From a bacterium (GTDB taxonomy: Bacteria > UBP18 > UBA7526): a stretch of DNA of 50,939 nt. The translations under genes were made by a program, and so were the position numbers. Under the pieces are notes generated by a model, which was given only the letters and a program-made list of their open reading frames with translations, was not told where the DNA came from and made no database searches. Where the stretch lies: the NCBI GenBank assembly GCA_030615855.1, contig JAUWYL010000007.1:1-50939 (forward strand), written 5' to 3'. This document shows positions 171-49,451 of the stretch, one piece after another. Numbering within the stretch: the first letter of the stretch is position 1; each line of letters begins with the position of its first letter.

Positions 171-207
171 TTAACTGGTTACTGTTCGCTGGTTACTGGT
201 TACTTCA
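171..207. repeat. Heptamer tandem repeat (ACTGGTT-type) directly upstream of the four-helix-bundle gene
   Basis: actggtt-actgttc-gctggtt-actggtt-acttca; the same unit recurs at about 40574-40597. Confidence 0.75.
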
Positions 208-747
208 CTACTCCATATAGACAAAGGTAGCCAGTTTAAGGCTGACGCTCAGGTTCCCCTTAGCATCAGAGGTGATGGTCATACTTTGAACATCGAGTAG
301 CCGCTCTGATTTTTCAATCTTATAAAGAAATTTAGCTAGGGAGGGGAGATCGCACTTCAGACTCAAGGATATGGGCTTGACCTTATAATATTCCTTTGGC
401 TGGAGAGCTCCCGGGCCGAAGGAGAGAATGGTTGCTCCAGAATCCCTTCCCATCCTGTAGACATCCTTTAGTAGCTTAGGTAGTCCTTCCTCCTTGGGCA
501 GCCTCCCCTTGGCAAATTTCAGCCTCGTCTGGGCCTCGAAGTAGTCCCTCTCCAACTTCTCCTCCATCCTGGCTGCTGCCTGGGCCTCCTTGAACTGGGC
601 CTCCTTCTTGGCCAGTTTCTCATTGGCCTCTTTCCACCTACTGGCCGGGGACCGAGGAGTTATATATAGAAAATAGTAGCCCGCTGCTAAGATAATAATT
701 ACTCCCATGAAGATGAGCAATTTCCTATCCCGGGGATTGAGCTTCAT
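208..747 (-). CDS. pilO: Type IV pilus assembly protein PilO
   Basis: N-terminal TM helix, coiled coil, LPKEEGLPKLL motif and C-terminal ferredoxin-like segment; follows pilM/N. Start moved to ATG 747, which has an AAGGAGG RBS. Confidence 0.8.
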   Translation of the reverse strand: MKLNPRDRKLLIFMGVIIILAAGYYFLYITPRSPASRWKEANEKLAKKEAQFKEAQAAARMEEKLERDYFEAQTRLKFAKGRLPKEEGLPKLLKDVYRMGRDSGATILSFGPGALQPKEYYKVKPISLSLKCDLPSLAKFLYKIEKSERLLDVQSMTITSDAKGNLSVSLKLATFVYME

Positions 748-844
748 CCCGCCCCTCCTTCTGTGATACAATTTGTTATCTTAAATAGTGTAAGATTATT
801 TTTACTGTATCGATTTCTCAACGAATTACAAAGAGGGGCGGGAT
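746..844. repeat. About 100 bp imperfect palindrome overlapping the pilO RBS and start
   Basis: Perfect 12-bp inverted repeat atcccgcccctc (746-757) / gaggggcgggat (833-844), with inner pairs gataca/tgtatc and atctta/taagat. Confidence 0.7.
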
Positions 845-848
845 TCAT

Positions 849-2831
849 TTACTCCTCCAATTCCTCTTTTTTCTCCTTAAGCTTCTCCCTTAGACCGACT
901 TTCTTCTTTTCCTCTGCGGACTCTGCGGTCTCTTTTGCGGTCTCTGCGGTTGCAGGTTCCTCTTCCATCCTCTTTATTACCTTTTTGATCTTCCATTTCA
1001 TGGGGAAGCTCACCGTTTCACCCTCCTTTGGTGTGGATACGCTCCCCAGATTTATCTCTTCAAAATAGGGTGAGCTCTTGAGCCTTACCATGAGGTTGGA
1101 GACCGCCTCTACAGAACCTGCCTGAGCAGAGATGCTGGCACTCTCCTTTGTTGGCAAAGAGAGGCTCTTAAGCCAGATAGAGGAGGGAAAGACCCTGGTC
1201 ATCTCCAAGAGAACATCGAGCCATTTTGCTTTTTCAGTAAGTAATCCAGTAATGACTTTTTCTCTCTTCTCCACCGCTGCCTTCTCTCTTTTAAGCTTCT
1301 CCACCTTGGGAACGATGTCCTTTATCTTCTCCAGTTCTGCCTCAACCTGGCGTAGCCTGGCCTCTCTCTGCTGAAGCCTCTGTAAAAATAGAAGGCCACT
1401 GAAGATAATAATCGCCACTCCCAGACCAGCAGCAATCATGAGGTTTCTCTTCCTGGCCTGGATGAGCACCCTCTCCTTCACGATCTGGGGAAGGAGGCTT
1501 ATTCTTACCTCGCCCAATTCAATGGCCCTCAAGGCCAATCCCACTGCCACGCTAAAGGAGGGCAGTATCTCCTTCAATTTGAAGATAGCGGGATCATATT
1601 TAATTTGAGATAGGGGATCGGCGATCTCAACCGGAACCCCGAGCCTCTGAGATAAGAACCTCTCTAAGTTCTTGAGTCGGGCACTCCCTCCAGAGAGGAT
1701 GACCTTGGTGATATCCGCCCCACCTGGCTGGGAGCGATAGTAGTTCAAAGAGCGCCGGATCTCAGCGAATAGGTTCTCTAATACGGGAGAGAGAGCACTG
1801 GCTACCTGGGAGGTGGGATTGGGAGCGGGAGGAACTTCTGGTGGTTTCTCGGGTGCAGGAGGTATCTCGGGTGGTTTTTCAGGTGGTTTCTCTGGAGCAG
1901 GTGGAACTTCAGGCGGCTTCTCTGGTGAAGGAGGAACTTCTGGTGGTTTCTCGGGTGCAGGAGGTATTTCGGGCGGTTTTTCAGGTGGTTTTTCTGGTGT
2001 GGGTGGAATCTCTGGGGGCGCAGCCTCTGGTGGTCTTTCCGGAACGGAAGGAATTTCAGGAGGTCTCTCAGGTGCCTGGAAAAGGGCATCCCCCTCTTCC
2101 CTCTTCAACTTCTCCGCCTCGCTAAAGGATACTCCGAGCTTATACTGAATGGCCCCTGTCAAATCATTCCCAGCTACCGGTGCGCTCCTGGTGAACTCCA
2201 GCACCCCATCCCGATGGATGCTGATGTCTGTGGTCGTGGCCCCGATGTCTATCAAGGCTACCACCTCCGCCTCTTTAGGGGGCTTCCTGAACCTCAGGGC
2301 ATTATAGAGGGTGAGGGAGGAGATGTCCATCGCCACACAGCTAAGTTCTGCCCCCTCAACCAGAGCCAGACGGTCATCGATGAGTTCCTGCTTCATGGCA
2401 GCTAAGATGACCTTTACCTCTTCCCCCTCCTTCCCGGGCAGAGCCTGGTAGTCCATACCCACCTTATCTAAGGGGAAGGGGATCTGGTTCTGGGCCTCGA
2501 ACTTAATTACCTGATCTAATCTCTCCCTTGCTCCAGAAGGGAGTCTCAGGTGCCTTATGATCACTGACTGGCCAGGGACAGCGATGACCGCATTCTTGAC
2601 CTTTATCTCATTCTCTTCTAATAATCTCTTTATTCCCTCAATAACCCTGGCCCTCTTCTCCTTATTCTCTAGGGCAGGGTCTAAGTGAAGCTCCACCATC
2701 CCGGCATTAGCCAGTTCCACCTCCTCCTTGGTCACCTTCAATAGAATGGCCTTTATGGAACTGGTTCCAATGTCCAGGCCAAGGACCGCTTTTGCCTTGA
2801 GTAATGGCTTGAATAAAGAAATCTTCTTCAA
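849..2831 (-). CDS. pilM: PilM-PilN fusion protein with a proline-rich insertion
   Basis: Actin-like ATPase motifs GLDIGTSSIK, IDIGATTT, LSGGSARL and AVGLALR, then ISLLP, a TM helix, coiled coil and PilN-like domain (WLDVLLEMTRVFPSSIWLKSL). Confidence 0.85.
   Translation of the reverse strand: MKKISLFKPLLKAKAVLGLDIGTSSIKAILLKVTKEEVELANAGMVELHLDPALENKEKRARVIEGIKRLLEENEIKVKNAVIAVPGQSVIIRHLRLPSGARERLDQVIKFEAQNQIPFPLDKVGMDYQALPGKEGEEVKVILAAMKQELIDDRLALVEGAELSCVAMDISSLTLYNALRFRKPPKEAEVVALIDIGATTTDISIHRDGVLEFTRSAPVAGNDLTGAIQYKLGVSFSEAEKLKREEGDALFQAPERPPEIPSVPERPPEAAPPEIPPTPEKPPEKPPEIPPAPEKPPEVPPSPEKPPEVPPAPEKPPEKPPEIPPAPEKPPEVPPAPNPTSQVASALSPVLENLFAEIRRSLNYYRSQPGGADITKVILSGGSARLKNLERFLSQRLGVPVEIADPLSQIKYDPAIFKLKEILPSFSVAVGLALRAIELGEVRISLLPQIVKERVLIQARKRNLMIAAGLGVAIIIFSGLLFLQRLQQREARLRQVEAELEKIKDIVPKVEKLKREKAAVEKREKVITGLLTEKAKWLDVLLEMTRVFPSSIWLKSLSLPTKESASISAQAGSVEAVSNLMVRLKSSPYFEEINLGSVSTPKEGETVSFPMKWKIKKVIKRMEEEPATAETAKETAESAEEKKKVGLREKLKEKKEELEE
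1810..2078 (-). repeat. Coding tandem repeat (PEKPPE[IV]PPA)n inside PilM
   Basis: About 85 aa of Pro/Glu/Lys repeats; near-identical DNA blocks begin at 1828 and 1930 (102-bp offset). Confidence 0.9.
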
Positions 2832-2875
2832 ATCTTCACCTTATAAATCATTACCAGTTGCTACTCTCAGTTTGG

Positions 2876-3103
2876 TCACAAAGTGACCTCTAATTGTTGG
2901 ATCCCAACAAATCTATTTCGGGGAACCTTCTCCTTATCCAACCTTTTCACTTCCAGACAGAGCTCTATCGCCTCTTTAATCCGAGACAATAGCCTACCCA
3001 TGGTCTTAGCCTGGGTATGACATCCTGGAAGATCGGGAACTTGAGCAATTAGAAAACCATCCTCATCTTCCTCAATCAAGACCGGAAAAGTATACTTTCT
3101 CAT
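2876..3103 (-). CDS. hicB: HicB-family antitoxin-like protein (short, orphan)
   Basis: Motif IEEDEDG..AQVPDLPGCHTQAKT..ELL..IKEAIELCLE-type; no hicA next to it. Confidence 0.8.
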   Translation of the reverse strand: MRKYTFPVLIEEDEDGFLIAQVPDLPGCHTQAKTMGRLLSRIKEAIELCLEVKRLDKEKVPRNRFVGIQQLEVTL

Positions 3104-5345: not shown

Positions 5346-5864
5346 TCAGTTATAGTTGGCCATGAGGGTAGTGAGATACACGCATCTCTGGCCGCTATGG
5401 CCACTCCCTGCCTTGTATGGCCACCAGACAGAGACCGTCACTTCCTTTGGATCGCTTCCCGAGGATATAGCCTGCCACTCGTATCTTGAGTAATAGCCAG
5501 GGGCAATGCTCTCGCTTGTCTCATTGGGAATGTTGGCATACCCTCCCCTCTTTATCTCCTCCATCCTCCTCTGGGCAAGGAGGGTGGCAGTGGTCAGGTC
5601 CTCCCCCAACTTGCTCGCCTTCAGTCCCATAGGCATAACACGCAAGAGGGCTAAGAGGGCTACGGCAAGAATGATAAGGGCGATCATGACCTCCAGAACC
5701 GTAAACCCCGCTTTCCTTGAATCGGGGAATCGGGGAATCGGGGTATCGGTAATTTTTCCCTTGTTTCCGCTTCTCCCATCTGCCCCGTAGGCTTGTCCTT
5801 CGGGGTTCCCCTTTTCTCCCTTTCCCTGATAACCTGATAACCTGATTACCTGATTACCGATCAC
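5346..5864 (-). CDS. GspI/PilV-like minor pilin with a long repeat-derived leader
   Basis: KAG|FTVLEVMIAL, ATLLAQRRMEEIK. GTG start preceded by GGTGA; the 53-aa leader is encoded largely by 8-mer repeats. Confidence 0.8.
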   Translation of the reverse strand: MIGNQVIRLSGYQGKGEKGNPEGQAYGADGRSGNKGKITDTPIPRFPDSRKAGFTVLEVMIALIILAVALLALLRVMPMGLKASKLGEDLTTATLLAQRRMEEIKRGGYANIPNETSESIAPGYYSRYEWQAISSGSDPKEVTVSVWWPYKAGSGHSGQRCVYLTTLMANYN

Positions 5865-5913: not shown

Positions 5914-6564
5914 CTACCAGCTACTATATATTTTAACCCGAGCAGTAGCTTTGGCATTTTCTACCCGATACTTAACTTTCCCAGCTGTATCCTGCAGTTT
6001 TACGATTCCCTCATTGGCTGAGTCTGTAAGAGTGACTGTGCCTTTAAAGGTAAAGGTATGATGATAGGGGTCACTCGCTCCTCCTCCAATCACCTCATCT
6101 ATGACCACCACTTTGGGCAATTTTCTCTCGGAGCCCGGTTCTGGGTTCTTTGGAGGATAGGATAATGCGGGCTGAATCCAGACTACTTTATTGGTCTTAT
6201 CATAGACCGCATAGTACTCTTCTCTTAAAGTCATGGCCTTACTGTGGGCCATCCTCATGGTTGAGGCCACATCCCGGGCAGCATTCTTGACGCTCGTCCT
6301 GCGATAGGTCCCCTGGCCGTAGAAGAGTACCCCCCCAATGACAATGGCAATGATGACCACCACCACCATCATTTCTATAAGACTGAACCCGGCTTTCTTT
6401 GAATCGGAGAATCGGTGTGTTTCTGTATCGGTGTAACGGCGTATCGGTGTATCGGTGTAATTCTCTTTTATTACCTTACTCCGACACTCCCTCACTCCAT
6501 TACTCCGTTTCACCTGCCCACTTTCCCATTTTGCATTTTTAATTTTGCATTTTTCATTTTTCAT
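5914..6564 (-). CDS. GspH/FimT-like minor pilin with a long repeat-derived leader
   Basis: KAG|FSLIEMMVVV, AARDVASTMRMAHSKA. ATG overlaps the upstream stop (TGATG) with a GGAGG RBS. Paralog of 9658-10194. Confidence 0.8.
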   Translation of the reverse strand: MKNEKCKIKNAKWESGQVKRSNGVRECRSKVIKENYTDTPIRRYTDTETHRFSDSKKAGFSLIEMMVVVVIIAIVIGGVLFYGQGTYRRTSVKNAARDVASTMRMAHSKAMTLREEYYAVYDKTNKVVWIQPALSYPPKNPEPGSERKLPKVVVIDEVIGGGASDPYHHTFTFKGTVTLTDSANEGIVKLQDTAGKVKYRVENAKATARVKIYSSW

Positions 6565-7982
6565 CAGTCCTCCGGGATTTCCCTATAGTACCAGATTTTG
6601 CCTTTAACCGCCGGGGTAGCCTTTCCCCTGTTTATAATGATTCTGATCCTCTTCAAAGTCTCCTGACCGGATGGGGAAACATACCTCCCGGTTGATATTA
6701 TCTCAAAGAACTGGTTATTATGGGACTGGGGAGGGCCAGTAGGGCTATTGTTGAAGGAGAAGTTTGTGGTATAGGTCTTATCCGCAGCAAGTATCTCAAA
6801 GTCGGCATCATCGTCATTAACATCGGGTGTAGTGGGATTATTTGAGTCCCAGTTATCATACTCTGTCTCTGCATCCGGGTCAAAGTTATCCTTGATATTG
6901 TCCCTTACATAGTCGTTAGTGATGCTTTTTTCCGCAATCCGCACCGCCGTTGTATTCGGGTAGCCCCACTTGCGGACGTAATTAATAAATTCGTTAAACT
7001 CATCTTGGGCGCTACCCATCTCGTCCTGATTGGTCCGATCCAAAGTCCCATCATCCCAAGTATCAAGAAAGTAGTACTTCGCTGGGGAGCCACTTGAGGG
7101 AGGATTGAGGTCTATGTCCTGGATATTGAAAGGTTTTGAGGAATCGGTTTCGCTTCCGCTGTTGTCATCGTCCCGGTTGGTGTCTATGCCATCGAAGGGG
7201 TTATCGTCTGCTGTCCTTTCTATTCCATCGGCTCCAGCACGATAGGCAAGGATTGCTGTCACTACCCGGTCGATATTCGTCTCAGTTACTTTCAGTATGG
7301 CATAGCCAGGAGTTCCACTCTGATTCCTGCCAAAGGCAGCCTTCAGGGCCTTCTCATTTGCCGTATTGACATTTATAGGAAGACGGGTATCAGGGTTTGT
7401 AGGAAACTCTTTATGATAGACCTTTGCCACCTGATGATAGACTGAGAGGCTCTCCTCGCTTATATCATAGACGCAGGCTAATTCGTCAAGGGTCTCAAAG
7501 GGCCCATAAGTCTCTTTCTGATAGTTGACGATATTATTGACTTTTATAGTGCCTATATTTGGCAGCCCATCCAGAAGGTTCTTCCAGGAACTGTTGTCTG
7601 CTAAGGGATTATTGAGGCTCACCTTCCCTCCCTCATCATTTATTATGACGGCATAGTAGCCGAAGGTATTTCCATCCTCATCCGTCAAAGTAATCCACTT
7701 GGAATCCGCTGTTCCATCTCCATCGTTATCAACATCCGAACCACTGAAATAGGTGGCCCAATCCTCCTTTAGGGAATCAATGGTAAGATCTGTATCCCTC
7801 CTCAGCCAATAGACCGCATGGTCTATCCCGGCCTGGGTGATATACATAGCCTTCATATCGTCCCGATGGGTACGGGCGATGATGGGCTCCAAGCGCATCA
7901 TGAAGATGAAGGTGGTGCCGATGATGGCTAAGACGGCCAAGAGCCACATAGCCATAATCACGGCAACGCCCTTTTCTCCCAT
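6564..7982 (-). CDS. GspK/PilX-like minor pilin (second copy), Asp-rich
   Basis: MGEKG|VAVIM, AMYITQAGIDHAV, INVNTAN motif, DxDxDG-like loops (DVDNDGDG), FEIISTG...IWYYRE. ATG 7982 is coupled to the upstream stop. Confidence 0.75.
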   Translation of the reverse strand: MGEKGVAVIMAMWLLAVLAIIGTTFIFMMRLEPIIARTHRDDMKAMYITQAGIDHAVYWLRRDTDLTIDSLKEDWATYFSGSDVDNDGDGTADSKWITLTDEDGNTFGYYAVIINDEGGKVSLNNPLADNSSWKNLLDGLPNIGTIKVNNIVNYQKETYGPFETLDELACVYDISEESLSVYHQVAKVYHKEFPTNPDTRLPINVNTANEKALKAAFGRNQSGTPGYAILKVTETNIDRVVTAILAYRAGADGIERTADDNPFDGIDTNRDDDNSGSETDSSKPFNIQDIDLNPPSSGSPAKYYFLDTWDDGTLDRTNQDEMGSAQDEFNEFINYVRKWGYPNTTAVRIAEKSITNDYVRDNIKDNFDPDAETEYDNWDSNNPTTPDVNDDDADFEILAADKTYTTNFSFNNSPTGPPQSHNNQFFEIISTGRYVSPSGQETLKRIRIIINRGKATPAVKGKIWYYREIPED

Positions 7983-8728
7983 CAAAAGCCCCCAGTTAAA
8001 TCCTCTCCATAGCGGATGCCCGCCTTGACCATGGCGTGCAAGGTGGTCCCGGGATCGCTCTCATCTGTAGGATCGGCTTTGACCGTCAAAGTAATTTTTA
8101 GCATCCCGACACGGGATGCCGGTGGTCGATCATTAAAGTAGAGATAGGAAACAACACCTTCTGTACCGGGCATGGCGGCAGTTATTGGTTGGGAACCAGC
8201 ACTATGAAAACTATAACTTCCCTCACTTGTTTGGTAAGGAGGATTGAGCACTCTCTTATAAAGGGTATAGGTCTCGCTCCCCACCCCCGGCTCGCCAGAG
8301 TACCTGGAAAACTGAATCTTCTCCACTCCTTCTGTTCCATCTATAGGGACATAGAGGGTAATCCAGCGGCCCTCCCTCGCTGATCCTCCTTCCCCGAGTT
8401 CGAAGACAACATCTGGGGTATCTCCACCTACATCGGGTAGGGCCTGCCTGATCTCATTTACCATTCTCTCAAAGGCTATTCGGACATTCTGAATCAGTTC
8501 TACCCTCTCCTCTCCTGTCTTATAGGCCTTGGTTCCCATCTTAAAGACAGTATAGAAAGCAACCATTAACAGAGAGAGTAAGGCAACAGCGACCAGAAGC
8601 TCAACAAGGGTAATTCCCATTCTTTTTGAATCGGGGAATCGGAGAACCGGGGTATCGGGGTATCGGGGAATCGGGGTATCGGGGTTCCCTTTTTCTTCCT
8701 TTTCCTGATTACCTAATAACCTGATCAC
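7982..8728 (-). CDS. GspJ/PilW-like minor pilin with a repeat-derived leader
   Basis: KRMG|ITLVELLVAV, RIAFERMVNEIRQA; the leader contains DTPIPRYPDTPVLRFPDS. Confidence 0.78.
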   Translation of the reverse strand: MIRLLGNQEKEEKGNPDTPIPRYPDTPVLRFPDSKRMGITLVELLVAVALLSLLMVAFYTVFKMGTKAYKTGEERVELIQNVRIAFERMVNEIRQALPDVGGDTPDVVFELGEGGSAREGRWITLYVPIDGTEGVEKIQFSRYSGEPGVGSETYTLYKRVLNPPYQTSEGSYSFHSAGSQPITAAMPGTEGVVSYLYFNDRPPASRVGMLKITLTVKADPTDESDPGTTLHAMVKAGIRYGEDLTGGF

Positions 8729-8756
8729 TGGTCACTTTCCCACTTTCTATATTTTA

Positions 8757-9209
8757 TTACATCTTTTTCTCATAATCAGTAAAGAGGGTAACCAGTTTTA
8801 CGCTTCGCTCCCCACCATAGGGCTTATAGAAGACCTCAACCACAACTTTCTTAAGCTTGGGGTTGTTTACCGCATCCACATCACTAATTGTGGTCACCCG
8901 CTTGAACTGGAGATAATCAGTTATATCCCCATAATTCTCTGTGGTAGTGCCGCTGGATAGTTGGGCCCATCCCGTATTCCTTAATTCCTCTATCTTCGCC
9001 TGGGCCAGAAAGGAGGCCACCGTGGTATCTTGGGATATCTTACTTGCCCTGAGGCCAATAGGGAAGAGGTGCATGATGGCCAGTAGGCCAAAACCCAGGA
9101 CAATCACAGCAACCATGACCTCCAGAAGGGTGAATCCCGCTTGACGGGGAATCGGGGTATCGGGGAATCGGGGTATCGGGGTATCGGCGTAACAGAGTAT
9201 GGGGGTCAT
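8757..9209 (-). CDS. GspI/PilV-like minor pilin with a repeat-derived leader
   Basis: QAG|FTLLEVMVAV, ASFLAQAKIEELR. ATG 9209 overlaps the stop of the four-helix-bundle gene (ATGA). Confidence 0.78.
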   Translation of the reverse strand: MTPILCYADTPIPRFPDTPIPRQAGFTLLEVMVAVIVLGFGLLAIMHLFPIGLRASKISQDTTVASFLAQAKIEELRNTGWAQLSSGTTTENYGDITDYLQFKRVTTISDVDAVNNPKLKKVVVEVFYKPYGGERSVKLVTLFTDYEKKM

Positions 9210-9589
9210 TTGGAGATAGACCATTTGTCAGCAGTGTTAATCATTTTGACTAACTGACCAAGAATTTGTTCATATCGATTATCTAATTTCTGCCAGACGT
9301 CCTTTTTTATGTATTCCATGTGGAGTGCAAAGTCAAGCCAGCATTGTGTTTCGGCCGCCTCTCCTTCACTATCGCTGAGTTTGGAAATAAAGGCTGCTTT
9401 ATAGCGACGTTTTCTCCAGGCCTCCGCAATATTCGAACAGACAGAACGAGATGACCGACGCATCTGTTCACAAAGCGAATATCTCTCCTCTGGTGGAAAA
9501 GTTTTGCACAATTCGTGGATTTCCAATGCACATTCCATTGCCAACAGATATACCTCCAAATCCCTAAATGTCTCTGCATATCTACTCAT
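9206..9589 (-). CDS. Four-helix-bundle protein (23S rRNA IVP / TIGR02436 family)
   Basis: FRDLEVY, FPPEERYSLCEQMRRSSRSVCSNIAEAWRKRRY, KLSDSEGEAAETQCWLDFA. Confidence 0.9.
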   Translation of the reverse strand: MSRYAETFRDLEVYLLAMECALEIHELCKTFPPEERYSLCEQMRRSSRSVCSNIAEAWRKRRYKAAFISKLSDSEGEAAETQCWLDFALHMEYIKKDVWQKLDNRYEQILGQLVKMINTADKWSISK

Positions 9590-9590
9590 C

Positions 9591-9657
9591 CCTTACTCCC
9601 ATACTCCGTTACTCCCTTACTCCACCACTCTGTTTCTCCCATTCTCCGTTTCATCCC
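9591..9657. repeat. Octamer repeat arm (xxTACTCC) upstream of the four-helix-bundle gene
   Basis: ccttactcc-catactcc-gttactcc-cttactcc; 9598-9612 is the reverse complement of 9189-9203 at 14/15 positions. Confidence 0.85.
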
Positions 9658-10194
9658 TTAATCTTCCCAGCTATCATAGATTCTCGCCCGGGCAGTCGGG
9701 GATTTAAGCGTTACTTTATAGAAGTTCTTGAGCCCTTTGTCTTTTAACCAAACACTTCCCGCGGTAACCGTGCTTTTGGGTGAGAATTTATGATAAGCCG
9801 TCCCGGTGTCTGTATCCGCTGGAACGGGATCCGGAGTGCCAGGGTTCGATGCTTGGCCTCCCGTGCCTGCTTTGACCCGGGCGATGATTGCCATATCGGG
9901 AAGGGCTTGCTCCGTGCCAAAGTCCGGATTCTTCCCTGAAGTAATATAGATGGAATAGGATTGGACCCAGATGGTTTCATTATTACAGTCATAGACTGCA
10001 AGATAATTTTCTCTCTCTGTGACCGCCTTCTGCCGGGCGAGGCGCATGACGTTCACCACATCCCTGGCCGCCACCTTGACGCTCGTCGTCTCCCTGAAAT
10101 TCTTGAATATAGCAAAGGCCGCCAGGGCCATAAGAGCAATAATAAATATTACGGTCATTAGCTCTATAATAGAGAAGCCATTTCTTTTATTCAT
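9658..10194 (-). CDS. GspH/FimT-like minor pilin
   Basis: MNKRNG|FSIIELMTVI, AARDVVNVMRLARQKAV. Confidence 0.8.
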   Translation of the reverse strand: MNKRNGFSIIELMTVIFIIALMALAAFAIFKNFRETTSVKVAARDVVNVMRLARQKAVTERENYLAVYDCNNETIWVQSYSIYITSGKNPDFGTEQALPDMAIIARVKAGTGGQASNPGTPDPVPADTDTGTAYHKFSPKSTVTAGSVWLKDKGLKNFYKVTLKSPTARARIYDSWED

Positions 10195-10371
10195 TATAAT
10201 ACTTCACGGATGAGCACGGATTGACTAAACGGATTAGCACTGATTCAATCACCAACGGGGATGTTCTGATAATCTAGGAAATCGAGCTGCGCCCGTCTGG
10301 CCGTCGGACAGACAACCCTTCAACGTATAACGAAAAACGAAACTGGTTAACTGTTATGTATGATTGCCCCC

Positions 10372-10419
10372 CCACCACTTTTAAGCAAATCTAATTTTGG
10401 AAATCTTGAAAAGTGGTGG
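10372..10419 (-). terminator. Stem-loop downstream of the major pilin gene (terminator or stabiliser candidate)
   Basis: 11-bp inverted repeat ccaccactttt / aaaagtggtgg; no clear U-tract. Confidence 0.4.
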
Positions 10420-10450
10420 AGGGTTATATACTAAAGTGGGTCATCCACTC

Positions 10451-10930
10451 TTAGGGACTCTTGAACTCACCAGGGTTGACGTAGACTACAGAGTAGGTAG
10501 GCGCACCTTCATACTCTCCACCCCTGCACCAGATGGTGTATCTCGAAGGCCTGCCAGAGGTAACAGCTTGGTATCCGTAGGGGTTACCCCAGGGATCATC
10601 CGGCCAATTGCTGGTGTGTTTTCTGAACTTCATATAGGGGCCGGACCAGTTATCACCGATTGATTCAGCATCTGTTACCAGTGATTTTAGCCCGTAGCTG
10701 CCAGATGTTGACCCGGGCTTAGTGTCGCTACCACTCAAGGGATACTGGTCGCAGTCCAGGTAGTACATCTCGCAGGCAGTAGTCATGCTATCCAGGTCTG
10801 CCCAGCCACCGCCCTCCTTGGCCTTCCTCTGCTGCATCATGAACCTTGGTAGGGCAACGGCAGCTAAGATCCCGATGATGACTACTACCACCATCAACTC
10901 AATCAGCGTAAAACCCTTCTCTCTCTTCAT
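10451..10930 (-). CDS. gspG: GspG-like major (pseudo)pilin
   Basis: MKREKG|FTLIELMVVVVIIGILAAVALP, WSGPYM and DPWGNPY motifs; strong GAGGAGGTGA RBS before ATG 10930. Confidence 0.8.
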   Translation of the reverse strand: MKREKGFTLIELMVVVVIIGILAAVALPRFMMQQRKAKEGGGWADLDSMTTACEMYYLDCDQYPLSGSDTKPGSTSGSYGLKSLVTDAESIGDNWSGPYMKFRKHTSNWPDDPWGNPYGYQAVTSGRPSRYTIWCRGGEYEGAPTYSVVYVNPGEFKSP

Positions 10931-10950
10931 TCTTCTCACCTCCTCTCTAT

Positions 10951-11098
10951 ACACGGATTTCTTTGTTTTGCTTACTGTTTGGGATTAAACACACGGATAA
11001 TCACGGATAAAATCTTAGACACGGATTTTCACAGATTGGAAACGAATTAGCACGGATTTATCTGTGACCATCCGTAAAGAATCTGTGATTATCTGTGT
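10951..11098. repeat. CACGGAT/ATCCGTG-family hairpin element in the pilin 5' UTR
   Basis: Several cac(g/a)gat units followed by atc(t/c)gtg units; the left part resembles 42259-42320. Confidence 0.8.
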
Positions 11099-11100
11099 AT

Positions 11101-11130
11101 ATAATATCATAGTAAATTTCTATTTGTCAA
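11101..11130 (-). promoter_or_regulatory. Sigma70-type promoter for the major pilin
   Basis: TTGACA (11130-11125), 18-bp spacer ending in TGA, TATTAT (11106-11101). Confidence 0.65.
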
Positions 11131-11197
11131 GGATTTTCTAGTATTTGCTGATTCTTACTTTTTAATTTTACATTTTGCATTTTGCATTTTGCATTTT

Positions 11198-12133: not shown

Positions 12134-12149
12134 CATTACCCCCATAATT

Positions 12150-12390
12150 AAGTTGATACGTTGATAAGTCAACAAGTTAATACGAGAATACGAAAATAAG
12201 TGAATAAGTCATTGGGTCTCGGGTTACGGGTCTCGGGTTACGAGTTAAAACCCGTTTATTGTAATTTGTAACTCGCAACCCGTCACTCGCAACTCGTTAT
12301 TTCTTCTCCTCTGCCCCTTTTTCTTATCTACGTATTTTCTTATTTTCTTGTTTTCTTATTTTCCCTTGTTAACTTGTATTCTCGTCAACT
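12150..12390. repeat. Nested hairpin element: outer 8-mer arms (aacaagtt / aacttgt), inner 7-mer arms (gggttac / gtaactc)
   Basis: Read directly: gggtctc-gggttac-gggtctc-gggttac-gagtt ... aactcgc-aacccgt-cactcgc-aactcgt within A-rich and T-rich arms. Confidence 0.8.
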
Positions 12391-12399
12391 CCGTTGCCG

Positions 12400-36578: not shown

Positions 36579-36655
36579 CCTTCCCCCTTTTATATTCGTG
36601 TTGATTCGTGTTTCCATCTCTCCCGTTTTCGCTTTACAGTTCGCGTTGATTCGCG

Positions 36656-38649: not shown

Positions 38650-38711
38650 TTTTCTCTCACCTAGAGGTTTACGGTGTACGGTTAACGGTAAACGGTAAAC
38701 GATCCTTCTTG

Positions 38712-39848
38712 TTATCCAAGAATAGCAAGTAGGATTCCAGCGGCGATAGCAGAACCGATCACTCCCGCCACATTGGGGCCCATAGCATGCATTAATAAGA
38801 AGTTACTGGGATCCTCCCTCTGTCCCTCCTTCTGTACCACCCGGGCCGCCATGGGGACGGCAGAAACTCCTGCCGCACCGATCAGAGGATTGATAGGTTC
38901 TTTGGAGAAGAAGGACATAAGCTTACCAAAAAGCACCCCGCTTGCCGTGGCAATGGAGAAGGCGATCACTCCTAAGACCAGTATCTTCAGGGTAACCAAA
39001 GTGAGGAAGGTCTCTCCCCTCATAGTGGCTCCGATGCATATCCCTAAGAATATAGTGGTGATATTTATGATCTCGTTCTCTGCCGTACGGGCCAGCCTCT
39101 TCACCACCCCGCTCTCCCTCATCAAGTTTCCCAGCATGAACATCCCGATTAAAGGAGAGGCCTTGGGGACTAATAGGATACATAGGATGGCAACGATTAA
39201 GGGAAAGAGTATTTTCTCCCTTCTTGAGACCGGACGCAGTTGCTTCATAATAATCTTTCTCTCCTCTTTAGTAGTAAGAAGCCTCATGATAGGGGGCTGG
39301 ATGAGGGGGACCAGGGCCATATAGGAGTAGGCAGCAATAGCGACCGGTCCCATCAAATGGGGAGCGAGGATAGAGGTAGTGAAGATGGCGGTTGGACCAT
39401 CTGCACCACCAATGATTCCTATGGAGCCTGCTTCAGGGAGGGTAAAGCCTAATCCAATGGCGCCCAAGAGAGTGGCGAAGATCCCGAACTGGGCCGCAGC
39501 CCCCAAGAGAAAGGTCTTGGGATGAGCCAGAAGGGGGCCGAAATCGGTCATGGCTCCGATACCCAAGAAGATTAAAGGAGGGAAAATGCCATATTTTATT
39601 CCGAAGTAGAGGTAGTAGAGCATCCCTCCTTCCTCCATTATTCCGGATAGAGGGATATTGGCCAATATGCTCCCGAAACCGATAGGAATGAGAAGTAATG
39701 GTTCATACTTCTTGGCGATGGCTAAGTAGATTAATAGGCATCCAACCCCAATCATGATTATATTCTGATAAGTGAGGTTGGTATATCCAATATTTTCTAA
39801 GAGGCTAGCAAATGCCCTTCCCAGATTCTGGATTTGAGAGAAAAACAT
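38712..39848 (-). CDS. Na+-translocating decarboxylase beta subunit (OadB/MmdB/GcdB family)
   Basis: [57 protein letters not shown]. Confidence 0.95.
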
Positions 39849-40231
39849 TACTTTCTTCCTAAAGGAGTAAGGATCATGAGAAGGTTCCCAATATCCACCT
39901 TCTCTCCCTTCTTCACCTTGATCTCCTTAACCACCCCTTTAGCAGGGGTAATGATGGCGTTCTCCATCTTCATGGCCTCCAAGATGATGACCGTCTCTCC
40001 TGCCTTTACCTTATCCCCTACCTGCTTCTTTATCTCTATGATGAGCCCCGGGATGGGAGAGGTGATATCAATTTCCTTCTTAGTAACGCGGGGGGCTTGA
40101 GGAATGAGGAGCTTCTTAATGCTTACCTCTACCCCAGGCCTCTTGGAAGGAATAGGAGCCTGAGCAGAGGTCTCTTCCTCTATCTCCACCTCAAATACCT
40201 TTCCATTTACCTTAATCCTAAACTTCCTCAT
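39848..40231 (-). CDS. Biotin carrier subunit of the Na+-pumping decarboxylase (MmdC/GcdC-like)
   Basis: [18 protein letters not shown]-terminus and EAMKMEN. Confidence 0.88.
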
Positions 40232-40515
40232 CTAAGAACCCTTCTTCTAATGAGGGAGGTTCTCATCTGCTCTTCCCTCTTCCTCCTCGCCCATCTGGAT
40301 GGCTTATAGTGAACCTCGCTCTCTGGTGATTCTAAGGCGACTAAGGCAGCGGATAAGGCGGCAATGGTCTCCTTCTCCCTTCCTGGATAGCGGGTAACCT
40401 TCTTCTTAGAAAGCCGGGCTAACAGTCGCATAATAATGACCAGGAGAAACAAGGAAGCGAAGACGATGAGCATCCCAACGATGACAATGGATATCCCGCT
40501 CAGCCACTTCTCCAT
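40228..40515 (-). CDS. OadG/MmdD-family membrane anchor subunit
   Basis: GMLIVFASLFLLV TM helix, IAALSAAL motif, position in the operon. Confidence 0.75.
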   Translation of the reverse strand: MEKWLSGISIVIVGMLIVFASLFLLVIIMRLLARLSKKKVTRYPGREKETIAALSAALVALESPESEVHYKPSRWARRKREEQMRTSLIRRRVLR

Positions 40516-40597
40516 ATCACCCTCGCTTCGCTCGGAATTAGTTAATAAGTTGACAAGTTGATAAGTTTACTTGTTAACTTCTGGTTACTGGTTACTT

Positions 40598-42241: not shown

Positions 42242-42341
42242 CTCTTTCCTCCTTTTTGACACGGATTTTTTTGCATTGCTTACTGCTTAGGCAAAAACAC
42301 CGCGGATTGTCACGGATTCATCCGTTTCTTTAAATCCGTGC

Positions 42342-43286
42342 TCATCCGTGCTTATGTTCCAGGACTTCTTCTGCTGCCTTTACGATATCGTTGGAATCGA
42401 GGTTAAACTCTTTGATTAGTTCCTCTGGTGTTCCCGACTCTCCAAACCTATCCTGAATGCCAATGAACCTCATGGGAACGGGATAGTTCTCCACCACTAC
42501 CTCTGCCACAGCACTCCCAAACCCTCCCATGATCTGATGTTCCTCACAGGCGATGATGGCTCCGGTCTCTTTAGCTGCCTTTATAATTGCCTCCTTATCA
42601 ATGGGCTTTACCGTATGAAGGTTAATTACTCTGGCACTTACTCCCTTCTTCTCTAACTTCTCTGCCGCCTTTAATGATTCACAGACCATGTAGCCACAGG
42701 CGATTAGAGAGACATCCTTTCCTTCTCTAAATGTTGCTGCTTTTCCGAGCTTGAAAGGGGTATCCTTTTTAGTAATTACTGGTATCTTCTCCCTTCCAAA
42801 TCGGATATAGGCCGGACCCTTAATCTCTGCGGCTAGCATAGTCGCCTTATAGGTCTCAATGGCATCGCAGGGAACGATGACCTTCATGTTGGGTAAAACT
42901 CTCATGAGAGTAATCTCCTCTAAGGCCTGGTGGGTAGCACCATCCGGGCCAACAGAAACCCCACCATGAGCCCCTCCGATCTTGACATTGAGGTTAGCAT
43001 AGCAGATGGTAGTCCTTATCTGATCCCAGGCCCTTCCAGCAACAAAGACTCCATAGGTTGAGACAAATGGTATCTTTCCTGTCAAGGATAGACCAGCAGC
43101 GGTATTGAGCATATCCTGCTCAGCAATCCCGATCTCGAAGAATCGATCGGGGAACTTCTCAGCAAACCATAATGTTCGGGTAGAATCGGTTAAGTCCGCA
43201 CCTAAGACAACCACTTTGGGATTGGTCTTTCCTAACTCAACTAATGCCTCTCCATAACCATCCCTCGTCGCTTTCATCTCTGTCAT
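42342..43286 (-). CDS. Transketolase, C-terminal subunit
   Basis: GIAEQD, GPDGATHQALE, PAYIRFGR, EEHQIMGGFGSAVAE. Confidence 0.92.
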   Translation of the reverse strand: MTEMKATRDGYGEALVELGKTNPKVVVLGADLTDSTRTLWFAEKFPDRFFEIGIAEQDMLNTAAGLSLTGKIPFVSTYGVFVAGRAWDQIRTTICYANLNVKIGGAHGGVSVGPDGATHQALEEITLMRVLPNMKVIVPCDAIETYKATMLAAEIKGPAYIRFGREKIPVITKKDTPFKLGKAATFREGKDVSLIACGYMVCESLKAAEKLEKKGVSARVINLHTVKPIDKEAIIKAAKETGAIIACEEHQIMGGFGSAVAEVVVENYPVPMRFIGIQDRFGESGTPEELIKEFNLDSNDIVKAAEEVLEHKHG

Positions 43287-43307: not shown

Positions 43308-43391
43308 CACAGATTAGCACAGATTAAAGGATACAGATTATCACAGATAAATCCGTGTGTATCAGTGTTGTTATCCGTGTCTATCCGTGTT
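43308..43391. repeat. CACAGAT/ATCCGTG-family hairpin element
   Basis: cacagatt units facing atccgtgt units; further copies at about 10205-10245, 26600-26670, 32355-32432, 42259-42350, 45695-45757 and 46955-47030. Confidence 0.85.
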
Positions 43392-44258: not shown

Positions 44259-44275
44259 AATTTAACCTCCTTATG

Positions 44276-44410
44276 CACGGATTAGTTTAAATTTAAAAAT
44301 CAAATATTAAAAATTAAAATTACATATTAAAATCCAAAATTTTAAACTTTGATTTGTCATTTTGCACTTTGATTTTTGCATTTTGCATTTAGTCATCGTG
44401 TCTATCCGTG
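44276..44410. mobile_element. Composite hairpin element, inverted copy of 35230-35358
   Basis: Manual reverse-complement alignment; differs by substitutions and one extra heptamer unit. Confidence 0.75.
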
Positions 44411-45661: not shown

Positions 45662-45757
45662 TCCTATAAGCCTCCTCTCAAAACAATTCTGTAACCACGG
45701 ATTACACAGATTTTACGGATTATTTTTAAATCTGTCTAATCCGTCTAATCTGTGGTT

Positions 45758-46924: not shown

Positions 46925-47097
46925 AGATAAGCCTCACTTTGTTCGGCAGAATAGGGATGCAGACAGATTTAAGCGGATTCAGACAGATAATTTATCCGTT
47001 TGCATCTGCGATAATCCGTTTGAATCCCTTCCTTTATGATTTATTCAAATTCTGATGTTGTAAAATGGCAGATAATGCTTTAGGTCAAGCGTAGTTG

Positions 47098-47832: not shown

Positions 47833-47871
47833 ACCTCCTCCTTTCCGTTGTGCTATTGTGCGTCGGTTGAT

Positions 47872-47892
47872 TGCCCAACATAGGTTTATCTG
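47872..47892 (-). mobile_element. attI-like recombination site, copy 2
   Basis: ACAGATAAACCTAT-GTTGGGC; the 17 bp up to and including GTT are identical to those at 49316-49332. Confidence 0.5.
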
Positions 47893-47949
47893 TACTAATA
47901 AAATTACAATTACGGCTATTTCTACCCATTAAAATCCATACAAAAATAA

Positions 47950-47976
47950 GGGGTCAGGTGCAGCACGTTGTTATAT
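47950..47976 (-). mobile_element. Truncated attC site (left half) closing the RES cassette
   Basis: ATATAAC-AACGTGCTGCACCTGACCC; ATATAAC is the exact complement of the GTTATAT core at the cassette start (48558-48552). Confidence 0.6.
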
Positions 47977-48515
47977 ATTTAATTTTTTTCAATTGGTGCA
48001 ATTCGGTTTTTATAAATTCGGCGGCCTCAATATTAAACAAAACAACATTAAAACCAACTTGATTCAATGCGCTTTTGTACCGCAAACCATCATATTTTTG
48101 CTGCTTAAAAACCTCCGATAAATATTGTGTATGACAGTAATCCCATACAGGAAAATTTGGATCTGTAGGTTTGGCAAACGACTCATTAATTTTCTTCCAT
48201 ATATGGTTTTCAATCGAATGATCATCTATCTCCTTGGTCATATCAACTAATTTCACATGGTGGCCCCATTTCAGAAGCTTTATATGGAATTTTTTCCAAA
48301 ATATTGTCTTTGGAATAATCATTCCCTAATCTAGCTCTAAACAATGATATCCCTTTGCTTAAATTAATCTCCCTTTGCAAAGCAGATTTGATTAAAAAGG
48401 TTATGAAGTTATTTTCTTTTGCATTCAGTACGAATCTATTGGCCACTCGTCTTCGGATAACAAAACGTGCCCATGCATCTTTGTCATCAAAATTAAGTAG
48501 ATTGTTTTCAGACAT
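47954..48515 (-). pseudogene. RES-domain protein, frameshifted with an apparent internal deletion
   Basis: Frame 1 LFRARLG...EMGPP stops early; frame 2 continues VKLVDMT...TQYLSEVFKQQKYDGLRYKSAL...NVVLFN. The usual GRAN...YLY...AEVRP core is missing. Confidence 0.65.
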
Positions 48516-48551
48516 TCGGTCTCTGCCCATTTTCATTGAACAATATTGTTG

Positions 48552-48606
48552 ATATAACATCCGAAATCAGTGGTGCCTTAGCGTTCGCTGGATTGAGTTG
48601 TTAGAC
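48552..48606 (-). mobile_element. Complete short attC site (about 55 bp)
   Basis: GTCTAAC-AACTC-AATCCAG-CGAACGCTAAGGCACCA-CTGATT-TCGGAT-GTTATAT: inverse core, L boxes with one extrahelical base, GTT core. Confidence 0.75.
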
Positions 48607-48608
48607 AT

Positions 48609-49010
48609 TCATTTAGTAGAATATCGATTTATTAAAAAATCTAATGTTCTACGTAAAATAGGAAATGCCTTTTTTACGTCTTCATAGTTTCTCTCAGCAA
48701 GTTCTTCGTGAAGATAAAGATGAGATGTTGTATTACGCTGGTTGAGCATATCGAGCCAAACAGCTTCATCATGAAGCCAACCAATTCGAAATGATTCTTT
48801 CAGAGATTCTCGAGGCGTTTTAGTGTCAATGCCTTCATATTTAAGGGCGCGTTTTAGCGTTTTCCACATTAGTTCAATAACATATTCAAATCTGTGGATT
48901 GTTCCTTCAACTACAAGTTCTCGATCCTTAGGGATTTTTAAAGCATCTTCTAGTTTAATTATGGCTCTTTCAAGATTATTAAGGCTATCTTGCAATTTAC
49001 GAATGCTCAT
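48609..49010 (-). CDS. HEPN-domain toxin (HI0074-like nucleotidyltransferase substrate-binding protein)
   Basis: GTIHRFEYVIELMWKTLK, RNTTSH (Rx4H RNase motif). Confidence 0.88.
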   Translation of the reverse strand: MSIRKLQDSLNNLERAIIKLEDALKIPKDRELVVEGTIHRFEYVIELMWKTLKRALKYEGIDTKTPRESLKESFRIGWLHDEAVWLDMLNQRNTTSHLYLHEELAERNYEDVKKAFPILRRTLDFLINRYSTK

Positions 49011-49287
49011 AAAGAACAACTCCTTGTTTTATAATACGATTTTTTAATGGTATTGGTGTAGAGTCCAGATGAACAAGACATATCCAATATAATGAACGTG
49101 CTCGATATGCTTTATCCCGCAGGTAAATTATATCACGTTTCGTAAGTCGTGAACCAGATATTGCTATATCGACATCTGCTCTATCGTCATTATCATTAAA
49201 TACTCGTGAACCAAATAATATTATTTTTGCTATTTTTTCATGATCGACGAGAATTTTTATAAATCGGTTGACTGACGAGGGCAACAT
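48997..49287 (-). CDS. Minimal nucleotidyltransferase (MNT) antitoxin
   Basis: ILFGSR...DVDIAI motif; overlaps the HEPN gene. Start uncertain (49287, 49320 or 49335). Confidence 0.82.
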   Translation of the reverse strand: MLPSSVNRFIKILVDHEKIAKIILFGSRVFNDNDDRADVDIAISGSRLTKRDIIYLRDKAYRARSLYWICLVHLDSTPIPLKNRIIKQGVVLYEHS

Positions 49288-49311
49288 AATTTTATTATTT
49301 TTTATTTTTAT

Positions 49312-49332
49312 GTCTAACATAGGTTTATCTGT
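49312..49332 (-). mobile_element. attI-like recombination site, copy 1
   Basis: ACAGATAAACCTAT-GTTAGAC; GTTAGACAT is exactly complementary to ATGTCTAAC at the cassette end (48608-48600). Confidence 0.55.
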
Positions 49333-49357
49333 CATCTTCGCTACGCTCAGCTAACTT

Positions 49358-49451
49358 CACAGATTAGCACGGATTGACTAAACTGATGAGCACGGATTTA
49401 GCGATGAGAATCAGTGCTAATCCGTATCTTTTAATCTGTGCCCATCCGTGT
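49358..49451. mobile_element. 94-bp MITE-like hairpin element, copy B
   Basis: 91/94 identical to 19549-19642. Confidence 0.75.

Follow-up and report, generated by a model that had tools for sequence, protein, structure and literature searches.

Why do so many spacers between the co-transcribed genes of one bacterial genome hold a run of short tandem units followed by a run of their reverse complements, and why do some of these spacers also hold a small gene? The question is raised by contig JAUWYL010000007.1 of GenBank assembly GCA_030615855.1, from a bacterium of the GTDB lineage UBP18; UBA7526. In the following, the window is this whole contig of 50,939 nt (C6), which belongs to a 1.375 Mb genome (G000) assembled in 45 contigs and estimated to be 93.6% complete. 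Five genomes of the same family served as relatives (G001 to G005; completeness 53-85%), with G001 representing the same genus. The explanation that we favor, and regard as probable, is that the spacers are occupied by small selfish DNA elements whose ends are inverted arrays of tandem 7-10 nt units, each element forming a hairpin. A full element would carry one small gene in its loop, and most copies would have lost this gene and persist as empty hairpins.

Cargo genes in hairpin loops

Two protein families recur as cargo of the hairpins. The genome encodes four-helix-bundle proteins (PF05635, TIGR02436) in eight full genes and three fragments at contig ends, and GxxExxY proteins (TIGR04256, PF13366) in six genes. 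For 13 of the genes both flanks are assembled, a 14th having been left out with its upstream flank on another contig; as judged by eye, 12 of the 13 are enclosed by a 5' array and a reverse-complement 3' array, which places the open reading frame (ORF) in the loop of a hairpin. Examples of the arm pairs are TAGTCA/TGACTA, ATGCGTT/AACGCAT, GGTTACTA/TAGTAACC, and CACGGATTAG/CTAATCCGTG. All six GxxExxY genes have CACNGA- or CACGA-type arms, and the start codons of the cargo ORFs lie within the 5' arm or adjoin it. At C30:13741 the layout is nested, with outer CACAGAT arms around inner GGTAACG arms and the gene innermost. At the exception, C41:18369, the 5' arm recurs upstream as a direct repeat, and a complete hairpin lies on the downstream side.

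An earlier note on the window, made from its sequence alone, had pointed to two loci that adjoin a four-helix-bundle gene, and both were recovered. Their parts are given below in window positions, with the strand where a feature has one and with arrays as called by Tandem Repeats Finder (TRF).

1-159, minus strand: 5' part of a four-helix-bundle gene; PF05635 matches C6:1-123; ATG at 159; runs off the contig start, is identical to the C7 copy over 141 nt, and continues on the end of C26 or the start of C2
171-207: 5' arm of this loaded element at the contig start; sense GTAACCA units, on the plus strand ACTGGTT x4.4 (TRF 174-204); the 3' arm is on another contig, with TGGTTAC arms downstream on C26/C2
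9145-9205: 3' arm of the second loaded element, sense ATACCCCG units (TRF 9145-9206, x7.8)
9206-9589, minus strand: four-helix-bundle gene (23S_rRNA_IVP family) in a hairpin loop within a type IV pilin operon; PF05635 E = 2.8e-31
9590-9657: 5' arm of the same element, sense GGGAGTAA / CGGAGTAT units (TRF 9589-9647)

Pairing across the gene was scored for 1264 genes as the duplex energy of the two flanks minus the self-folds of both flanks. The self-folds were subtracted because ordinary genes between two complete hairpins of one family also pair in this manner, which makes the plain duplex energy noisy. The 13 cargo genes took ranks 1, 2, 3, 9, 12, 21, 22, 26, 46, 93, 116, 309, and 1004 (Mann-Whitney p = 2.7e-7), with the window gene 9206-9589 in first place. 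The enrichment of hairpins next to TIGR02436 (PF05635) and GxxExxY genes that the earlier note had anticipated is borne out by this ranking.

The four-helix-bundle cargo is without a nuclease fold, and the protein encoded at 9206-9589 has the PDB relatives 2RLD and 2GSC. Downstream of this gene, the frame of a pilin-like ORF stays open across the 3' arm, and an in-frame ATG overlaps the cargo stop codon. The GxxExxY proteins match PF13366 (PDDEXK_3) with E values of 1e-30 to 1e-42 and conserve the D...ExK residues in the alignment; no relative with a solved structure was found for them by sequence. Four-helix-bundle elements that directly adjoin tRNA genes were observed at G000:C44:16407-17396 and in two distant genomes (L111 and L131).

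Small GIY-YIG genes, which match PF01541, form a second, separate kind of gene-in-hairpin. Two of them rank high in cross-gene pairing, and the stand-alone genes G000:C35:39184-39525 and G000:C30:56569-56835 lie between short GC-rich inverted repeats of the ACCCCGCACCTTT / AAAGGTGCGGGGT type. Gene-less GC-rich hairpins resembling this type are present in the window at about 20550-20590 and 18820-18860.

Duplicated, empty, and absent elements

Arms and ORF are duplicated as one unit at unrelated loci. Two GxxExxY copies (C30:3099 and C45:36826) are near-identical across both arms and the ORF between them, with no relationship outside the arms. Two four-helix-bundle copies that break the assembly, one of them located at the start of the window, have a 32-nt 5' arm and 141 nt of ORF in common without any difference; they differ in their outer flanks and in the unit number of the 3' array.

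A single orthologous spacer, between the genes for the transketolase C-terminal subunit and a carboxyltransferase, occurs in three states. In G001 it holds a four-helix-bundle ORF within inner AAATCAAAA and outer CACGGAT arms; in the window (about 42263-42352) and in G002 it holds the outer hairpin only; and in G003, in a comparison limited by N runs in the spacers of that genome, it measures 36 nt and has no hairpin. Absent, empty, and loaded alleles, which the earlier note had expected of orthologous spacers, thus coexist at this site, the loaded and empty alleles at one orthologous site being seen for a four-helix-bundle gene only. The N runs of G003:C45:1-20000 (L016) fall exactly in several spacers, beside sequence that resembles the start of a dispersed element of 100 nt described below.

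Empty hairpins prove to be loaded elements reduced by internal deletion. The empty AT-rich hairpins of the window match the inner arms of the G001 element, and one of these hairpins, 44259-44410, aligns to positions 47-99 (82%) and 442-511 (90%) of the loaded element and hence equals that element minus positions 100-441. Window 16643-16814 gives two high-scoring segment pairs with the same element (positions 69-101 and 436-494) and retains roughly the first ten codons and the last codons, with the stop, of the four-helix-bundle ORF. The genome contains about 20 partial and eight near-full empty copies of the AT-rich family, with six in gene orientation and two opposite, and six near-full copies of an empty hairpin of about 100 nt (90-97% identity), two of them in the window. 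The loops of other hairpins also harbor elements, and empty ones occur there in both orientations; three AT-rich elements are located at the tip of CACGGAT-type hairpins, and their junctions are the same in all three cases. The hairpins and arrays of the window spacers are listed below, where z is the folding score against shuffled sequence and inverted pairs carry the prefix I.

10984-11197: empty CACGGAT-family hairpin, then an ATTTTGC array (pair I9, 84% complementary; z = -4.6)
12160-12389: triple-nested empty hairpin, outer AACAAGTT, middle ATAAGTGA/TTTTCTTA, inner GGGTCTCGGGTTAC (pairs I7, I10; TRF; z = -6.2 sense, -6.7 antisense)
13664-13727: empty CACTGAT/ATCCGTG hairpin (pair I22; TRF; z = -2.4)
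16660-16811: empty AT-rich hairpin in which a four-helix-bundle ORF survives as its start and its stop-codon end (pairs I3, I19)
19550-19640: dispersed empty hairpin of about 100 nt (CACGGATTAG family), copy 1 (z = -4.1)
20385-20495: empty ATCAGG / CTGATAT hairpin (TRF; z = -4.5; another family in G002)
21627-21745: GGTTTAC / GTAAACC hairpin with a GC-rich inner hairpin (TRF; z = -2.2; different family in G002)
23107-23334: nested hairpin, outer AAGTTAAT/CTTGTCAA, inner GGTTAGG/CCTAACC (z = -3.6), with an insert of about 50 nt that is missing in G002
24153-24307: GTTACTA / TAGTAAC hairpin with small GC-rich hairpins and a GCGAAGC insert (pairs I13-I16); ACGGAGA/CCGGTTC hairpin in G002
26602-26682: CACAGAT-family hairpin (TRF; G002 nearly identical)
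29325-29393: TATCAGGG x4, then CCCGATNA x4, a periodic helix with bulges (TRF; minimum free energy -35 kcal/mol, z only -1.2); CGCAGAT-family element in G002
30812-30927: empty AT-rich hairpin of the family of the G001 loaded element (pairs I2, I11)
32355-32434: CACGAAT / ATCTGTG hairpin (by reading of the spacer)
35207-35390: outer CACGGAT hairpin whose loop holds an AT-rich element running opposite to the genes (pair I8; outer hairpin only in G002)
40547-40596: AAGTTGAC array and CTGGTTA array (TRF; longer version in G002)
42263-42352: empty CACGGAT hairpin (z = -4.0)
43308-43391: CACGGAT/ATCTGTG hairpin (a copy of the same element at a second G002 locus)
44259-44410: empty AT-rich element in the loop between outer CACGGAT arms (pairs I1, I4, I5)
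45696-45754: CACGGAT hairpin (pairs I17, I18, 89-94% complementary; z = -5.7)
46950-47025: CAGACAGAT/GCGGAT hairpin (z = -3.8; G002 content differs)
49358-49452: dispersed empty hairpin of about 100 nt, copy 2 (pair I25; 96.8% identical to 19550-19640)

Between sister genomes, an orthologous spacer can hold a hairpin, none, or one of another family. Sixteen spacers were compared with G002, which is syntenic and has genes of 85-96% nucleotide identity. The unit family differs at 29302-29389, 24122-24335, 21608-21751, and 44259-44410; the hairpin of spacer 45662-45757 is absent in G002, where the spacer measures 19 nt; the inner element 35243-35390 is found in the window only; and spacer 26615-26682 is nearly unchanged. 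At 43311-43391, one arm has been converted to another unit type relative to G002 and the other arm kept. Elements of the same kind are present in all five independently assembled relatives. Together, cargo genes in loops, ORF remnants in empty hairpins, and polymorphic orthologous spacers support the proposal of the earlier note that the spacers hold loaded and empty members of a mobile system between co-transcribed genes. At the place of the 97-nt hairpin spacer 32338-32434, G002 holds an insert of 1545 nt with at least one ORF (G002:C29:50314-51858).

Abundance and placement of the arrays

All 35 window spacers of at least 25 nt were inspected. On reading, about 28 of them contain tandem 7-10 nt units followed by the reverse complements, where the earlier note had counted about 25; about seven are without any array, and direct arrays only were seen at 36618-36655 and 38650-38711. 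That note had distinguished at least seven unit families, and all seven were recognized again (CACGGAT, CAAAATG/ATTTTGC, TATCGGGG/TATCAGGG, AACAAGTT, GGTTTAC, GGTTACT, and TACTCC); genome-wide, the families number dozens. A repeat search found 35 inverted pairs within 200 nt in the window.

TRF produced 96 rows in the window and 1880 in the genome, compared with 272 in a second-order Markov control of the genome. After merging, 910 arrays of period 6-12 remained genome-wide, with dominant periods of 7 (368 arrays), 8 (262), and 10 (117), whereas the control yielded 33; adjacent inverted array pairs, determined by TRF consensus matching, numbered 72 versus 0. The arrays are concentrated between genes, where their density is 3.92 per kb, compared with 0.51 in the first 150 nt of longest-start ORFs and 0.25 deeper in ORFs, an intergenic enrichment of about 15-fold over the deep-ORF density. 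An array is present in 320 of the 606 co-oriented spacers. The complementarity of the arms is often loose and periodic.

Several arrays sit at the 5' ends of pilin-like ORFs. In-frame arrays at 9145-9224, 8628-8728, 6424-6564, and 5719-5864 precede the N_methyl motif, which starts at residues 27-55; either translation of the arrays yields long leader peptides of the prepilins, or the ORFs are over-extended and truly start farther downstream. Beside the 3' arm at 9145-9205, the features concerned are the following.

5719-5858: arrays GAATCGGG and CCTGATAA in the long 5' extension of a pilin-like ORF (TRF; ORF 5346-5864, N_methyl from residue 49)
6424-6564: arrays TGTATCGG, CCTCACTC, and CATTTTT in the 5' extension of a pilin-like ORF (TRF; ORF 5914-6564, N_methyl at residues 55-80)
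8628-8756: GAATCGGG x7 array and a short spacer (TRF; upstream of the pilin motif, ORF 7982-8728)

Arrays are misread in annotation as spurious ORFs or long N-terminal extensions, and assemblies break at them. GC-rich mini-hairpins of the CCTGCCGGGCAGG type and the GCGAAGC motif, known as a very stable DNA mini-hairpin, occur as very small inserts inside arms (window 24122-24335; G000:C35:26482-27484).

The same layout in other phyla

In many phyla, homologues of both gene families are likewise enclosed by hairpin arms. With the GxxExxY alignment as query, a scan limited to a single genome per species gave 562 GxxExxY relatives among 597 candidate stretches, and the best 80 were used. These 80 come from metagenome-assembled genomes labelled Elusimicrobia, Ratteibacteria, Desulfobacterales, Planctomycetota, Verrucomicrobiota, Bacteroidota, and others, and the closest among the best 80 of 562 carry the labels Elusimicrobia, Edwardsbacteria, and Ratteibacteria. 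After exclusion of eight loci with partial matches or short flanks, 72 entered the flank test, and 71 were measurable. The flank duplex reached z < -3 against shuffles at 41 of the 71; among the 65 loci with both measures, 37 passed, compared with two when the flanks were displaced 450 nt outward (Wilcoxon p = 1.2e-8). The arms again consist of tandem units (CACGAAA, CACGGAT, CACAGAG, CAGGAA), and at least two CACNGA motifs upstream together with at least two TCNGTG motifs downstream were found at 17 of 71 loci, as opposed to 0-2 in wrong-side and displaced controls. TRF arrays lie upstream of 28 of these loci, downstream of 41, and on both sides of 18, with clearly reverse-complement units at 13.

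PF05635 is present in 28 of the 61 genomes searched, our own counted. Thirty loci were returned, of which 27 entered the flank test and 25 were measured, two having internal stops. Flank duplexes reached z < -3 at 12 of the 25 and z < -2 at 15, whereas displaced controls reached z < -3 at one of 22. TRF arrays were detected upstream of 20 loci, downstream of 20, and on both sides of 17; at 11 loci the units are clearly reverse complements. None of 20 PF05635 loci in other genomes has an rRNA match, and the assembly of our own genome contains no large-subunit (23S) rRNA gene.

Proposed mechanism and rival explanations

The putative means of movement and RNA-processing role of the favored selfish elements would be as follows. 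The elements would spread at the DNA level into spacers and into the loops of existing hairpins. An encoded nuclease might cut cognate arms, with repair copying the loaded donor in a homing-like manner, or like arms might recombine. Slippage would expand and homogenize the arrays, aided by an apparent lack of MutS, and the very high density of arrays prone to slippage could be due to loss of mismatch repair. Transcription reading through from the host operon would express the cargo. In analogy to rRNA intervening sequences (IVS), the stem would probably be cut by RNase III, an enzyme that the genome encodes; such a cut would release the cargo mRNA and leave the neighboring cistrons unharmed.

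Slippage is also the starting point of a different explanation, in which the hairpins would be RNA elements of the host that arise in place through replication slippage and template switching and are retained for their benefit to polycistronic mRNA as processing sites, 3' end protection, or cistron insulation, with the small genes as opportunists in existing loops. We think this unlikely. It does find favor in the result for MutS (PF00488), which was not found in any of the six family genomes, our own and the five relatives (completeness 53-94%), and it accommodates the different unit numbers of otherwise identical copies and the conversion of a single arm at 43311-43391. In addition, more than 90% of the genes are co-oriented in long runs, so that the spacers are probably transcribed, and tandem heptamers just upstream of start codons have been described, with a proposed translational action (PMC4679880; this and all further citations refer to portions of the sources). 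Formation in place is at odds, however, with the recurrence of multi-unit elements with the same loop and ends at unrelated loci, with cargo ORF remnants in empty hairpins, with empty copies in both orientations, and with orthologous spacers that are without any hairpin.

Signals of a function in RNA were likewise not seen. The 606 co-oriented spacers were folded without G:U pairs, and 1x1 mismatches were then counted; the 181 G:U-type and 184 A:C-type mismatches reveal no sense-strand excess of wobble pairs, which leaves selection at the RNA level unsupported. The 5' and 3' halves of the spacers show no purine asymmetry (0.565 versus 0.557, p = 0.21). In positions 9000-28999, terminator-like sites show no excess (18 versus 22.3 expected), a count that also rules out the hairpins as intrinsic terminators; promoters in the same stretch number 29 versus 25.0 expected.

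It is quite improbable, in our judgment, that the hairpins belong to a system of the REPIN or MITE type (hairpins of repetitive extragenic palindromes [REPs] and miniature inverted-repeat transposable elements, respectively) that is moved in trans by a conventional transposase, encoded in the unassembled 6% or recently lost, with the four-helix-bundle and GxxExxY genes as passengers. Dispersed extragenic hairpin repeats with internal-deletion derivatives would suit such a system, and contigs break at repeated elements, so that repeated genes may be missing from the assembly. The earlier note had remarked on the absence of a visible transposase, and this observation holds in the 93.6% complete genome for four transposase families, namely PF01797 (Y1_Tnp), PF07282 (TnpB Zn-ribbon), PF00665 (rve), and PF01609 (DDE_Tnp_1), and for the reverse transcriptases of PF00078 (RVT_1), none of which gave a match. 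Nor was any target-site duplication recognized in the flanks of dispersed copies, although repeated arms obscure short duplications. The genes enclosed by the arms always belong to the same two families across many phyla. RAYT genes (REP-associated tyrosine transposases) are flanked by REPs, and constancy of the enclosed gene is, in the same way, the pattern expected of an element's own gene.

That the arrays are merely low-complexity sequence with chance inverted matches, or assembly artefacts without a common origin, is barely credible despite the degeneracy of the arms, the many spacers that fail to beat shuffles, and the up to 5 arrays per 10 kb of AT-rich genomes without PF05635, given the excess of arrays and inverted pairs over the Markov control, the same elements in five independently assembled relatives, and displaced flank controls near zero.

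The reading of the hairpins as small selfish elements has its own weak points, and the following weigh against it. The earlier note had expected the arms to fold better than shuffled controls, and this held for part of the spacers only. Compared with dinucleotide shuffles, 16 of the 35 window spacers reached z <= -2 on the gene-sense strand, 12 did so on the opposite strand, and about ten lie near z = 0. With a strict score (>=11), a reverse-complement partner within 300 nt was found for only 205 of the 910 arrays, versus 56 in a complement-only control, and at the GxxExxY loci of other genomes TRF-detectable arrays flank both sides in just the 18 of 71 cases given above. Across 18 distant genomes, each sampled by one stretch of 19-20 kb, array density was 1-9.5 per 10 kb with PF05635 and 0.5-5.5 without, ranges that overlap and are confounded by GC content. 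Within-genome paralogues are old, with identities of 25-44% for four-helix-bundle and 33-56% for GxxExxY proteins, so that recent movement is shown only for two gene pairs and the empty families. No transposition or homing event was seen directly, target-site duplications were not recognized, and the G:U excess that RNA-level selection would leave is missing. A transposase could also be unassembled, the genome being 93.6% complete and its assembly broken at repeats, and we know of no enzyme activity for either cargo family.

Relation to known systems

A wider proposal can be made only tentatively. In it, the 23S rRNA intervening-sequence proteins and the GxxExxY proteins would mark a single class of mobile elements that extends across phyla, tandem-unit-arm hairpins that enter any transcribed hairpin loop or spacer, with the classical rRNA IVS as the rare case of an rRNA host. 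The class might spread without a canonical transposase, by means of an encoded PD-(D/E)XK or GIY-YIG nuclease that targets the cognate arms or by recombination guided by the arms, and might decay into the ORF-less hairpins and heptamer arrays of Cyanobacteria, Bacteroidota, Beggiatoaceae, and others. There is a substantial chance that these are a distinct class of element rather than a variant of the IVS, MITE, or REPIN kind.

Among the closest known systems are the IVS of 23S rRNA, for example that of Coxiella burnetii, which carries an S23p ORF (PMC4990558). RNase III cuts the IVS stem without re-ligation, and IVS are regarded as selfish and are patchily distributed (bioRxiv 10.1101/2024.02.27.582315). 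In both systems the flanks form a long stem whose loop contains an ORF of the PF05635 family, the element takes the place of the tip of a pre-existing hairpin, and ORF-less versions also occur. In contrast to IVS, the host RNA here is operon mRNA, both window copies lying between protein-coding genes and not in a 23S helix, the arms consist of tandem 7-10 nt units, and the elements nest. rRNA insertions of the candidate phyla radiation contain 23S_rRNA_IVP, GIY-YIG, or LAGLIDADG ORFs, with ORF-less versions at the same sites (bioRxiv 10.1101/2024.02.27.582315). Like these insertions and homing endonucleases, the present elements combine small nuclease genes (GIY-YIG there, GIY-YIG and PD-(D/E)XK here) with 23S_rRNA_IVP in the same kind of insertion; they differ in that the nuclease role of GxxExxY proteins is predicted from fold, and in that the targets are spacers and hairpin loops and not conserved rRNA sites.

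In REPIN-RAYT systems, as here, many copies are non-autonomous and few enclose a gene between inverted arms; the similarity between our copies stops at the repeat arms. The hairpin-forming repeats of both are scattered extragenically (PMC3116915). The present elements differ by the absence of a Y1 transposase, by enclosing four-helix-bundle or PD-(D/E)XK genes, by arms that are short-unit arrays instead of a single palindrome, and by many unit families in one genome. Correia and ERIC (enterobacterial repetitive intergenic consensus) elements are MITEs that are co-transcribed and processed. They share with the elements described here the form of non-autonomous inverted-repeat elements in operon spacers with internal-deletion derivatives (PMC3184786), whereas here no transposase parent or target-site duplication was seen and the termini are tandem arrays. 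An integron array of cassettes bounded by attC hairpins, for whose integrase no search was made, would not fit well, since the genes between the hairpins are syntenic housekeeping genes, 85-96% identical in G002.

The short tandemly repeated repetitive (STRR) sequences of cyanobacteria are intergenic tandem heptamers. TAACTGA direct repeats near start codons were described in Beggiatoaceae, Cyanobacteria, and Bacteroidetes and proposed to act as a translational regulator; 169 sets are direct and one is inverted, and the portion of the paper drawn upon makes no link to hairpins, enclosed genes, or mobility (PMC4679880). The present arrays resemble them in having 7-nt units in spacers close to start codons, in distant phyla, and in related units (GTTACTA, TCAGTTA), and differ in having no single dominant unit or orientation, dozens of families, and inverted partners in excess of controls (72 versus 0 and 205 versus 56). 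As to the suggestion of the earlier note that the system may be undescribed, a literature search, with supplements outside its scope, found no paper linking the PF05635 or PF13366 families to flanking tandem-repeat hairpins, whereas intergenic tandem heptamers as such had already been described (PMC4679880).

Genomic context

The minus strand of the window carries 48 of the 49 ORFs kept, which comprise a type IV pilus cluster and genes of nucleoside and pyrimidine catabolism, a Na+-pumping decarboxylase, and related enzymes. Co-orientation is unusually strong throughout, exceeding 90% in most contigs (C30: 240 plus- versus 16 minus-strand ORFs). Near-consensus sigma-70-like promoters with an extended -10 element lie on the minus strand at 11101-11130 (TTGACA-N18-TATTAT) and 18697-18725 (TTGACA-N17-TAATAT), both in long spacers, so that not all spacers are purely intercistronic. 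An Rfam scan of the window at gathering thresholds gave no match, and a tRNA scan found no tRNA.

A module of about 25 nt (GCCGAACGAAGTGAGGCTTAT-type, with GAGG inside) directly follows hairpins and precedes the start codons of unrelated genes by a short distance, which raises the possibility that hairpin elements may bring or copy a ribosome-binding site. Its sites in the window are given here; others are on C36, C21, and C18.

19520-19545: GCCGAACGAAGTGAGGCTTAT-type module
40516-40545: GCCGAACGAAGTGAGGCTTAT-type module
46925-46960: GCCGAACGAAGTGAGGCTTAT-type module
49336-49360: GCCGAACGAAGTGAGGCTTAT-type module

Two regions of the window differ from G002 in gene content. The variable island 47833-49464, with RES-domain, nucleotidyltransferase, and substrate-binding (toxin-antitoxin-like) genes, is replaced there by about 6 kb of other sequence. 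In the region 38650-40568, the Na+-decarboxylase beta and gamma subunit genes have no tblastn match on the compared G002:C29 stretch, the biotin-carrier gene is matched only in part (60%) at the orthologous position, and about 370 nt separate the carboxyltransferase and biotin carboxylase genes of G002 at this site.

Significance

For annotation, the findings are of practical use where arrays give rise to spurious ORFs, over-long N-termini, and assembly breaks. More broadly, one scheme would join rRNA intervening sequences, intergenic heptamer arrays, and MITE-like hairpins. Genes of PF05635 have been found between cas genes, for example between cmr3 and cmr2 (PMC3936711), and the layout described here would explain four-helix-bundle genes at this and similar places between unrelated co-transcribed genes. 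The four-helix-bundle proteins of PF05635/TIGR02436 have been described as uncharacterized (bioRxiv 10.1101/2024.02.27.582315), and the function of PF13366/TIGR04256 (PDDEXK_3) is listed as "Unknown" (PMC3424549). With the present analysis, these two very large protein families of no known function gain a defined genetic context, the loop of a tandem-unit hairpin with ORF-less derivatives, and this context suggests candidate roles for both proteins, namely the cutting or binding of cognate arms.

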